A stretch of 64,000 bases of DNA from Candidatus Hodarchaeota archaeon (lineage in GTDB: Archaea; Asgardarchaeota; Lokiarchaeia; Sigyniarchaeales; SOKP01), in the NCBI GenBank assembly GCA_048887225.1, contig JBHLJY010000003.1:128001-192000 (forward strand), in the 5' to 3' direction. The position numbers and the translations under genes are program-made. Below the pieces are notes generated by a model, which worked only from the letters and a program-made list of their open reading frames with translations, had not been told where the DNA came from and ran no database searches. Below, in pieces: positions 3,089-5,461 of the stretch (the stretch's first letter is position 1; each line of letters starts with the position of its first letter).

Positions 3089-5461
3089 TTAAATCTTTAA
3101 AGACCTCGCAATAACATTTCTGAAATTTTCTACATCATTAACTAACTTATCAGCGTCCTCATCACTAATATTATCATCTTTCTCATATTTATTTAATGTC
3201 GTAAGCCAGAACTCAATCCTACCCAGCACTGGACTATCATCTCCAATTATTTTTCTCAACCGTATAAATGTATCATGAAGTTTTGTCCTAATATTTTGAG
3301 CTTTCCATCTTAGCATACAGTAATCAGAAACTTCTGCGAGATTCTGTGTTATGGCCATGATATCTAGGGTTTTCCCTCGTTCCTCACTTTTTATCTTACG
3401 TATAATCTCGATTTGTTCAAACAATAACTCTATTACTTTTGCAAGAAACCCTGTTAGCTGCCCTGGATTTGCGCACCACACTCTTATTTCTAAAGATTGA
3501 CTTGTTGCTGAAACATATACTCTTATAATTATTCGACCACCAGTCACCTTTGCTTCACTACAGAACCAAGCTTCTGCTTCATAATTCTTTTCTGTATCTC
3601 CTCCTTCATGAGAAGTGACCATACTTGTTTCAAAATTCTTTAGAGTCCTTATACCAGCTCTATAAGCTAACCTTGGGTCTAAATCGGCAATTAAAAAAGC
3701 CCTAGCGTCATTAGGGAGATCTTGAATAGATAATTGACAGTCCTCTATAGTAGTTAAAGAGGCACAAACTAGAGGGCACTTAATCTGAACCTCTTTTTTT
3801 CTCAAGAGAATTGTCTTTTGCTCTCCTATGGCGTTTTTATATATAACTGTGCCTGCTATATTAGAGATACCACACTCTCGTGGTTCTAAATAAAAGTCTA
3901 CTCCTCTTGAGTTATTTGATTCTATGACTGGAATAGTAATCAGAGGTTGTTTTAAGGAGTAACTAGAAGGAGCATCTAATACAACCTTTACGTTATTTAT
4001 TGCCATATCACTATGATTTCTCACGACTATTTTAAAATGTAATTGACCCCCTACAAAATCATAATCTCTTAATACCTCAATTTTTCCTTCATCCGTTGGT
4101 TTGATTTTTTCTTTTGCAACTTGAACAGCCTTCTTAGGGACTATTGGAACTTCGTAAGCTACCAACATCTTCTTTGAGGAGTCAATATATCCATCTATCT
4201 CTCCTTTTCCGATTAATATTGCTAAAGTCTCTTCAATACTCGCCTCTGTTACTCCCAATCTATTTACTAATTCTCTCAATCTTAAATTTCTATACGCTCT
4301 CGCGAGTTCTTTTAGTTTTGTCTCAAGATGGTTCGTTGTCATGAATTCTCTTCGTTGAGTAAATATTCCTGATATATTACCACTTTTTATCATTTCGTGG
4401 AGGCTTTTCCTACTTAATTCCACGGCAATATTCTGTTTTTCAGCTAGTTTATTAAGTTTAAATACACCCATATCTTTAGCATATTTTTTAATCTCTTTAT
4501 AAATTTGATTTGAAGTGATTATCTCTTTACCTCGATCAGCAAAATATCCGTCAATTGCCTTAGCACTCATTATGTTGCGACAAAAATTCTTAATTAGCTC
4601 AGGAACTATATTAAAGTTCTTTGCGAGTTCAATTATGGATACTCGGCCTTTTTTATTAATAGTTTTTATAAGATTGTCTGTAATATATTTTTGAGTATAA
4701 TAGAATTTTTTATCTTTTGAAAAAGATCCTTTAACTTGGTATTGACTGATTTGTTTATATATTACCTTAAGAGCCATCTCTACACTCATATCCAGCATAA
4801 TCGCCAAATCTTCAACCTTTATAATACCCTCTTTCTGAATTTTTGATACTAATTGTTTCCGCATCTCAGGAGATATATAATAAAAAATTCGATTTGTGGA
4901 ATCTATGATTCCATATATTTGCTCTTCTTCGTTATATTTCTTAATTAATTTTACCAATTGTTCTGCTGAGATGTGAAACGCATCCATTATTGAACTAAAA
5001 TTCGTAGTAGAGGCTCTCTTTAAAAGATCTAAGAAACATTTAGGGCAAATCTCCTTTCCAATATTATGTTTTAATTTTTTATTACACTTTGAAGAAGTTT
5101 TAATAAGGTTGTAGCGTCGAGCTTCTTTTTTTAATTGTTCTTCAGAAGGAAAAAAAATTCCGGGCGTTTTAAGATATGAATTCCAAGCATCCTTTGGATT
5201 TATACATTGCAAATAGTATTGACCAGAAGATAATTGCTCGATTCTTAAAAGAGAACCGCATTCTGGGCAAGAACTATCTTCCATAACTGTACATTTATAA
5301 TTCAACTCTGCTGCTTTCGCTTTTGAGTATTCAAGATTATGTCTTTTACACTCCCATAACTCTGTTGTAGCAGTATGATTAATACAAAAGCTTGATTTAC
5401 ATTTTTCGCATTTAAAGTCAATTTGTGAATTATCACAAATTAAGCATTTTTTTGCTGTCAT
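3089..5461 (-). CDS. Multidomain protein: Zn fingers + tandem PCI-like winged-helix repeats (DDRGK1/UFL1-like) + Ig-like/platform appendage
   Basis: CxxC...CxxC...CxxH at the N-terminus; about five G-x-(I/F)-x repeats with GRVSIIELAK and ADRGKEII; beta-sandwich then alpha/beta C-terminal region. Confidence 0.65.
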   Translation of the reverse strand: MTAKKCLICDNSQIDFKCEKCKSSFCINHTATTELWECKRHNLEYSKAKAAELNYKCTVMEDSSCPECGSLLRIEQLSSGQYYLQCINPKDAWNSYLKTPGIFFPSEEQLKKEARRYNLIKTSSKCNKKLKHNIGKEICPKCFLDLLKRASTTNFSSIMDAFHISAEQLVKLIKKYNEEEQIYGIIDSTNRIFYYISPEMRKQLVSKIQKEGIIKVEDLAIMLDMSVEMALKVIYKQISQYQVKGSFSKDKKFYYTQKYITDNLIKTINKKGRVSIIELAKNFNIVPELIKNFCRNIMSAKAIDGYFADRGKEIITSNQIYKEIKKYAKDMGVFKLNKLAEKQNIAVELSRKSLHEMIKSGNISGIFTQRREFMTTNHLETKLKELARAYRNLRLRELVNRLGVTEASIEETLAILIGKGEIDGYIDSSKKMLVAYEVPIVPKKAVQVAKEKIKPTDEGKIEVLRDYDFVGGQLHFKIVVRNHSDMAINNVKVVLDAPSSYSLKQPLITIPVIESNNSRGVDFYLEPRECGISNIAGTVIYKNAIGEQKTILLRKKEVQIKCPLVCASLTTIEDCQLSIQDLPNDARAFLIADLDPRLAYRAGIRTLKNFETSMVTSHEGGDTEKNYEAEAWFCSEAKVTGGRIIIRVYVSATSQSLEIRVWCANPGQLTGFLAKVIELLFEQIEIIRKIKSEERGKTLDIMAITQNLAEVSDYCMLRWKAQNIRTKLHDTFIRLRKIIGDDSPVLGRIEFWLTTLNKYEKDDNISDEDADKLVNDVENFRNVIARSLKI

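Follow-up and report, generated by a model that had tools for sequence, protein, structure and literature searches.

The gene considered here lies at positions 3089..5461 of the window (the 64,000-nucleotide stretch that was analysed) on the minus strand, as do all features given below, and is an intact open reading frame encoding 790 aa. From the N- to the C-terminus, its product consists of a zinc module, five winged helices (WH), an ear made of an Ig-like sandwich and a platform, and a four-helix bundle similar to the C-terminal domain of Vps28 (Vps28-C). Pfam matches above cut-off are PCI, E3_UFM1_ligase and DDRGK across aa 140-436 and VPS28 across aa 691-786. No transmembrane segment was found in the 790-aa protein, and no catalytic fold was seen among the structure matches of either half. 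The downstream neighbour, a NikR/CopG-like regulator (2580..3029), and the upstream neighbour, a DsbD_2-family membrane protein (5602..6345), are conserved within the family only and are uninformative on function; synteny stops at the family border, and the neighbourhood holds no ESCRT, ubiquitin or ribosomal genes. Promoter and terminator scans at the gene gave results no better than shuffles.

The distribution across Asgard archaea, proposed as a check in the earlier note, was surveyed in 301 genomes. The full gene is present in 62 of the 68 genomes of its own family, and most sister-family genomes encode a near full-length orthologue with 42-46% identity; the sister-family orthologues at ~44% identity include one from a single-contig genome. 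In two more families of the class a single-piece match is confined to the N-terminal half, and in the remaining Asgard genomes the match is mostly to the C-terminal module. The 324 database relatives are mostly labelled Promethearchaeota (Lokiarchaeia), with full-length identity of 67-87% among the matches listed. The gene is single-copy in its own genome, and near-universal and single-copy within its Lokiarchaeial family.

This combination of domains is already on record. Table S2 of Makarova 2024 (PMC10936438) lists the asCOG cog.003822 (Zn-UFL1-adaptin C-Vps28 C), whose representative in Lokiarchaeum GC14_75 has a NikR-like downstream neighbour, and Liu et al. (bioRxiv 10.1101/2020.10.19.343400) describe a fusion of Vps28, adaptin/COPI and UFL1. 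The gene fits the description of cog.003822 in its four-part architecture, its occurrence in Lokiarchaeia and its NikR/CopG neighbour, and is a further member of this catalogued Asgard family, the two being compared at the level of the annotation line. A eukaryotic-signature protein had been suspected at this locus; the protein is one, but it had been described as such in the two sources above, and as the fusion was already catalogued, the headline of the earlier note is not new. The value added here is the mapping onto the DDRGK1-UFL1 junction. The origin of UFL1 and DDRGK1 has been placed in Asgard archaea by Picchianti 2023 (PMC10183829), and neither DDRGK1 nor a split point occurs in the accessible texts of Liu et al. 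and Makarova 2024. No published fission model, and no single Asgard chain across the DDRGK1-UFL1 junction, was found in the accessible literature text.

The zinc module (aa 4-142, 5036..5452) carries 13 conserved Cys/His and is basic, with a net charge of about +7. It comprises an AN1/B-box-like knuckle (C6, C9, C18, C21, C26, H29), a second ligand group (C38/H41/C57), a Top1-like ribbon (C65, C68, C86, C91, with position 91 being D here) and the last cysteines C126, C139 and C142; in the AlphaFold model, the helix following C142 is helix 1 of WH1. The AN1 likeness proposed earlier for the N-terminal finger extends to the first knuckle only, whose six ligands are compatible with AN1, and the match lies below the cut-off (E 0.04; weak sub-cut-off AN1 matches in 4 of 23 members) and the module extends well beyond it. 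As a whole, the module has no clear counterpart in Pfam, PDB sequences or Atlas features, and searches with it returned no RING match.

AlphaFold models were made of two halves, with a pLDDT of 88 for the N-terminal and 92 for the C-terminal half. WH1 (aa 140-196, 4874..5044) is the counterpart of DDRGK1 WH1' and retains G184 and D187, the DDRGK motif itself being lost. WH2 (aa 197-256, 4694..4873) is the unbroken counterpart of the eukaryotic composite WH, which is formed by a DDRGK1 half and a UFL1 half, and WH3 (aa 257-316, 4514..4693) and WH4 (aa 317-375, 4337..4513) correspond to UFL1 WH1 and WH2, respectively. The most conserved patch of the family is found on WH4 (R351, G365, T368, Q369, F373), with Y390 adjoining. 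WH5 (aa 376-437, 4151..4336) is PCI-like (Pfam PCI 38 bits; CSN2 Z 12.5, rmsd 1.0). With a repeat HMM built from divergent homologues, each of the five repeats scores 30-40 bits, whereas 1000 shuffles never exceeded 10.4. The four repeat motifs quoted in the earlier note are real (residues 182, 212, 271 and 304), and the model contains five WH repeats. For the motifs at 271 and 304, the pairings given in that note are shifted by one repeat from the best collinear register.

The DDRGK1/UFL1 likeness that had been proposed for these repeats exceeds that to generic HTH or PCI domains by many orders of magnitude, with the exception of the PCI-like WH5. Searched against PDB sequences, the N-half profile hits 8B9X, an engineered human DDRGK1-UFL1 chimera, most strongly (E 7e-20), followed by UFL1 (2e-10) and DDRGK1 (5e-8), with the first unrelated PCI protein at 1.5e-4. 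The structure comparison expresses the same preference, 8B9X being the top match (Foldseek E 1.7e-13, TM by target 0.71) with a Z of 16.9; the runner-up reached 10.8 when representatives were searched exhaustively and 12.5 among Foldseek's own candidates. The strongest PF09743 scores in the 301 Asgard genomes belong to this family, and 14 control genomes score none. Apart from WH5, the array is specifically DDRGK1/UFL1-like. Two other assignments were rejected: a generic transcription-factor HTH, with matches far weaker than those to DDRGK1/UFL1, and a WH pair of the ESCRT-II type, which Foldseek scored at E 5e-4 compared with 2e-13 for the chimera.

The eukaryotic composite WH is assembled from two chains, the last part of DDRGK1 and the first part of UFL1 (PMC10702826, PMC9627666). 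In the Asgard model, aa 139-226 are overlaid by DDRGK1 215-304 (rmsd 2.1) and aa 227-435 by UFL1 29-246; the DDRGK1 alignment stops near residue 222-226 and the UFL1 alignment begins near 225-227. As the two alignments meet inside WH2, this domain corresponds to the eukaryotic two-chain composite in one piece, and the eukaryotic chain break maps to its turn at aa 222-227 (4781..4798). A composite WH from two separate chains is absent here, the chain being continuous with a constant linker length, and no insertion at the turn was seen in 68 homologue rows, leaving no space for the E2-binding helix of UFL1. WH1-WH4 align end to end and in the same order with the four WHs of the 8B9X chimera (E 7e-20). 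The human DDRGK1(UFBP1)-UFL1 backbone (8B9X; UREL-60S 8OHD/8QFC) has two chains and 7 WH, whereas the Asgard protein, at ~18% identity, has one chain and 5 WH; it is without the UFL1 N-terminal helix, the UFM1-binding motif, the membrane anchor, the docking helix and the C-terminal region, and adds the zinc module, the ear and Vps28-C.

The collinearity at the junction could also be a by-product of self-similar repeats, in which case the array would be a sister WH-repeat family and no unsplit precursor; this is possible, although we consider it less probable than true correspondence. The repeats are indeed mutually similar (hhalign probability 95-98), and the difference between 7 and 5 WH would agree with it. 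Because the repeats resemble each other, the register was checked using windows of equal length moved along one repeat at a time. On family profiles, the DDRGK1 score falls from 38.9 bits for the window that starts at WH1 to 30.9 at WH2 and 24.4 at WH3, and 17, 8 and 0 of 27 members, respectively, pass E 1e-6, a ranking that argues against the sister-family reading. On this protein alone, however, the DDRGK model gives a near tie between windows 1 and 2 (32.4 vs 34.3 bits), and in several distant homologous arrays it favours other repeats. The UFL1 evidence is more consistent: the match begins at aa 225-227 despite a longer shifted alternative (37 and 34 bits vs 18 shifted). The start is identical in 29 of 31 genomes checked, which are related and not independent, and the register is the same in the distant arrays P0133, P0217, P0140, P0253 and L042, including Helarchaeal ones. 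Structure alignments give the same collinear register. The UFL1 register is therefore robust and the DDRGK1 register modest, and given the DDRGK1 ties and the off-register distant arrays, the unsplit-precursor reading is likely and not proven. We regard it as moderately probable that WH1-WH4 keep the unsplit state, that eukaryotic DDRGK1 and UFL1 arose from a break inside WH2, and that the E2-binding helix, the UFM1-binding motif and the membrane anchor were gained later. The mapping hints that DDRGK1 and UFL1 are the halves of one older chain.

The N-terminal half is joined to the remainder by a linker (aa 438-460, 4082..4150) that is of low confidence in the model and poorly conserved. It is followed by an Ig-like sandwich of the adaptin/COP appendage type (aa 461-562, 3776..4081; near-invariant N482, P527, C530, C562 and P563), a platform (TBP-like) subdomain (aa 563-690, 3392..3775; AP-4 beta appendage 2MJ7, Z 13.2) and the Vps28-C-like four-helix bundle (aa 691-788, 3098..3391; Pfam VPS28, 2J9U). 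The succession of Ig sandwich, alpha/beta platform and helices expected from the letters of the sequence was confirmed at a pLDDT of 92, and the Ig plus platform ear was recovered by Foldseek, with COPI and AP-2 appendages as the best matches (E 1e-10 to 1e-7) and BBS9/2/7 ranked below them (4e-7 to 3e-5). The order of sandwich and platform is common to the adaptin/COPI appendages (AP-2 alpha/beta, AP-4 beta, gamma/beta-COP); their large subunits, however, have an alpha-solenoid trunk, in place of which the Asgard protein has the zinc module and WH array. Identity between the ear and its adaptin, COP and BBS counterparts is 9-13%, and in the model the two subdomains are set at a different angle (rmsd 12-14). 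BBS2/7/9 share the GAE-platform arrangement but possess an N-terminal beta-propeller that is missing here, and a BBSome subunit was rejected on this ground. Of the adaptin/COP or BBS layout suggested earlier, the ear thus stands, whereas the tail, then unnamed, is Vps28-C-like and points to ESCRT and not to the BBSome.

Vps28-C is the weakest of the domain calls, and the bundle is divergent. The last ~100 aa match Pfam VPS28 at 27.6 bits (cut-off 24.5), as do 25 of 104 relatives, and yeast Vps28-C (2J9U) is the top match of the bundle (Z 13.1, rmsd 2.1 over 93), although unrelated four-helix bundles reach Z 11.8. In profile comparison the bundle and the full Vps28 of the same genome are barely alike (probability 6.7). 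ESCRT-I Vps28 (2J9U, 2J9W) shares the C-terminal four-helix bundle; the steadiness box is absent from the Asgard protein, the VPS28 match spanning model positions 88-186 only, and the gene lies outside the ESCRT locus.

Across Asgard, many different N-termini are combined with the ear, whether or not Vps28-C follows: among representatives (50% identity, length at least 400 aa), 61 have Ig-platform, 31 Ig-platform-Vps28C and 4 the full architecture. This promiscuous module, together with a soluble protein of no catalytic fold that is kept as a near-universal single copy, supports an adaptor function. A sorting adaptor is the likeliest role, ahead of a tagging enzyme, and we see an even chance that the protein is, more specifically, a soluble, non-catalytic, ESCRT-0-like (ESCRT-linked) sorting adaptor of Lokiarchaeia. 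In the models the zinc module runs rigidly into the five-WH rod, and the flexible linker parts this rod from the ear and bundle. The zinc and WH half may serve as an exchangeable recognition arm for a protein target or for a basic/acidic surface; by analogy with AP/COP coats, the ear would bind short motifs of accessory proteins, and the Vps28-C bundle would pass the complex to ESCRT-II/III, bypassing core ESCRT-I. Vps22, Vps25, Snf7 and a full Vps28 are all present in the genome, along with a Vps4-like ATPase (by sequence look) in its ESCRT locus, two E2s and a ubiquitin-family match. Asgard Vps28/Vps23 interact with Vps22 in two-hybrid assays (PMC9192718). Makarova 2024 (PMC10936438) reads the class as ESCRT-0 analogues and Liu et al. 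(bioRxiv 10.1101/2020.10.19.343400) predict ubiquitin-dependent membrane remodelling. The location of the gene away from ESCRT and ubiquitin genes, its synteny limited to the family and the divergent bundle, just above the Pfam cut-off, count against this adaptor, as does the lack of a UEV hit with the Pfam query, a weak test. Helarchaeal relatives have zinc and WH parts but no ear or Vps28-C, so the job of the recognition arm need not be ESCRT-linked.

A ribosome-binding adaptor is an unlikely but not negligible alternative. Here the WH rod would sit on the large subunit as UFL1 does with WH1/WH2 on eL13, in an ancestral role independent of UFM1, and the ear and Vps28-C would link ribosomes, or nascent chains that have stalled, to the membrane machinery. 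WH3-WH4 are the counterparts of those eL13-contacting domains (PMC10937380), a UFM1-independent function was proposed by Picchianti 2023 (PMC10183829), and the conserved WH4 patch in a single-copy, near-universal gene would suit it; such a role would also fit the sorting adaptor if the ribosome were its cargo. Against it, the main 60S-grip parts of the human ligase have no counterpart (UFL1 WH4/WH5 on the L1 stalk, C-terminal bundle, PTC loop, DDRGK1 docking helix, CDK5RAP3; PMC10937380), similarity declines past about residue 301 towards the PCI-like WH5, and no ribosomal genes are adjacent.

It is improbable that the protein is a PCI-type or nucleic-acid scaffold, in which WH5 would mediate oligomerisation as it does in proteasome-lid/CSN subunits, or DNA/RNA would be bound by the zinc ribbon together with the WH rod, the ear being an extra hub for protein contacts. 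The fit of WH5 to the WHs of CSN2/CSN4/Rpn is close (rmsd about 1 A), but no PCI helical-repeat region precedes it. The Top1-like ribbon and the basic charge, seen in the zinc module of all homologues and in WH3-WH4 of close ones, would favour nucleic-acid binding, yet the WHs of distant homologues carry almost no net charge, UFL1 WHs touch proteins and not RNA (PMC10937380), and the ear and Vps28-C are left unexplained.

The suggested link to a ubiquitin-like ligase scaffold fares worst. UFC1 binding and activity depend on the N-terminal helix of UFL1 (PMC10702826, PMC10937380), which has no place in the continuous chain in any of the 68 rows, and the Pfam UFL1 match mostly begins at model position 21-30; the UFM1-binding motif before WH1' is missing, with the zinc knuckle in that segment, and the DDRGK arginine (Arg265) is lost, the position being mostly Lys in the family and Thr here. 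Membrane anchor, ribosome-docking helix, UFL1 WH4-5 and UFL1 C-terminal region have no equivalent, the zinc module and ear being present instead. Pfam, homologue and tblastn searches found no UFC1-like gene in this 98%-complete draft genome, nor did Pfam or Asgard homologue queries that match other genomes detect a cognate UFM1/UFC1; within the family, a UFC1-like gene was found in 11 of 62 carriers, as well as a single broken fragment, and the 7 sister-family genomes yielded none. Asgard Ufm1 was reported by Kostlbacher 2026 (PMC12962969), and some Asgard genomes hold a cassette of JAB protease, UFM1-like tag and UFC1-like E2, which a ThiF E1 joins in at least one locus. The Pfam Ufm1 model gave nothing above cut-off in 151 Asgard genomes and only E 0.04 on a clear-cassette gene; it is too blunt, and homologue queries were therefore used in its place. 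As the UFC1-binding helix, the UFM1-binding motif and the membrane anchor are missing and the UFC1-like gene was not found in most carriers, the protein is no UFM1 E3 and a ligase role is not supported; with the UFC1-like E2 found in few carriers, its job is independent of the cassette in most of them. Zinc modules can recruit E2s. A scaffold-type E3 for an archaeal ubiquitin-like system, using the UFM1/UFC1-like cassette or ubiquitin E2s, is the least probable reading: although the best-matching WH1-WH3 correspond to the minimal catalytic region of UFL1/UFBP1, which spans three WHs (PMC9627666), and cassettes exist in some genomes, the 11 carriers included, it is opposed by the impossible helix, the displaced UFM1-binding motif, the Lys/Thr at the DDRGK arginine position, the lack of a detected UFC1-like gene here and in 51 of the 62 carriers, and the lack of a RING match.

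For the origin of the UFM1 ligase, chances appear evenly balanced that Asgard WH arrays represent a one-chain precursor of the DDRGK1-UFL1 backbone, that fission in one WH freed the UFC1-binding N-terminus, and that an ESCRT/coat adaptor was recruited to a separately inherited UFM1-UFC1 cassette, patchy in Asgard and unlinked to the array there. A natural protein matches the order of a laboratory DDRGK1-UFL1 chimera while keeping the split WH whole, and the mapping offers a testable route of fission followed by gain of the E2-binding helix. The protein is also a natural construct for asking which targets this backbone bound before UFMylation, and through the ~44% identical sister-family orthologues its partners could be sought in cultured Lokiarchaeia.

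Winged-helix (WH) arrays related to that of the 790-aa protein also occur in other architectures. The distant 1258-aa protein P0140 (L033:2761-6537) begins with an IFT52-GIFT-like domain, a weak match (E 0.0025), and continues with a UFL1/DDRGK1-like array longer than that of the 790-aa protein and then an ear lacking Vps28-C. The 723-aa relatives of Helarchaeal type (L101:6001-8175, L031:6024-8195 and L032:5224-7395) combine the zinc module and five WH domains with two further ones replacing the ear and Vps28-C, a total of seven that equals the number in the human DDRGK1-UFL1 complex. 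Stand-alone arrays of 250-400 aa are found in other Asgard families (L042:5738-6895, L043:5728-6882, L044:366-1559, L090:4464-5234 and L091:6378-7136), and no half WH is visible at their start. The window's own genome encodes, outside the window, a second, distant multi-WH protein of 907 aa without ear or zinc module (C3:26020-28743, minus strand).

When divergent ear modules were compared, the pair C530/C562 (window 3776-3874, aa 530-562) was retained in 82/82 and 79/82 cases, respectively, and C715 in 72/78; C530 and C562 may form a metal site or a disulfide. Genes 66-99% identical to that of the 790-aa protein were identified at four loci (L138, L150, L168 and L195) under the record titles Thor-, Hodar- or Odinarchaeota or Nanopelagicaceae bacterium, which probably reflects mislabelled or mis-binned assemblies rather than a broader distribution of the gene.

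As for genomic surroundings, the stretch following the NikR-like regulator (window 1889-2579, ~690 bases) is devoid of any 60-aa ORF; many relatives have at the matching place a ~118-aa gene, listed as a parvulin in the Makarova table (PMC10936438). The gene for full-length Vps28 in the window's own genome (L089:8444-9091) is separate from the locus for ESCRT-II/III (L088:10055-13710), and its adjoining genes, judged by sequence, look like a ribosomal-protein/SecY cluster.

UFC1 is said to be confined to eukaryotes (Picchianti 2023, PMC10183829). The search for a tag/UFC1-like E2 cassette in the window's own genome found none. Such cassettes are present in other Asgard genomes (L221:617-3473, L222:1-1753, L223:71-3204 and L224:233-3384), where a JAB protease accompanies a UFM1-like tag that is either fused to the UFC1-like E2 or directly ahead of it; L221 additionally encodes a ThiF E1, and L223 and L224 include an EAP30-like WH gene. 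The tag-E2 query matched 28/301 Asgard genomes; the E2 scores above the cut-off for Pfam UFC1, and its only PDB match is UFC1 (E 2e-5).
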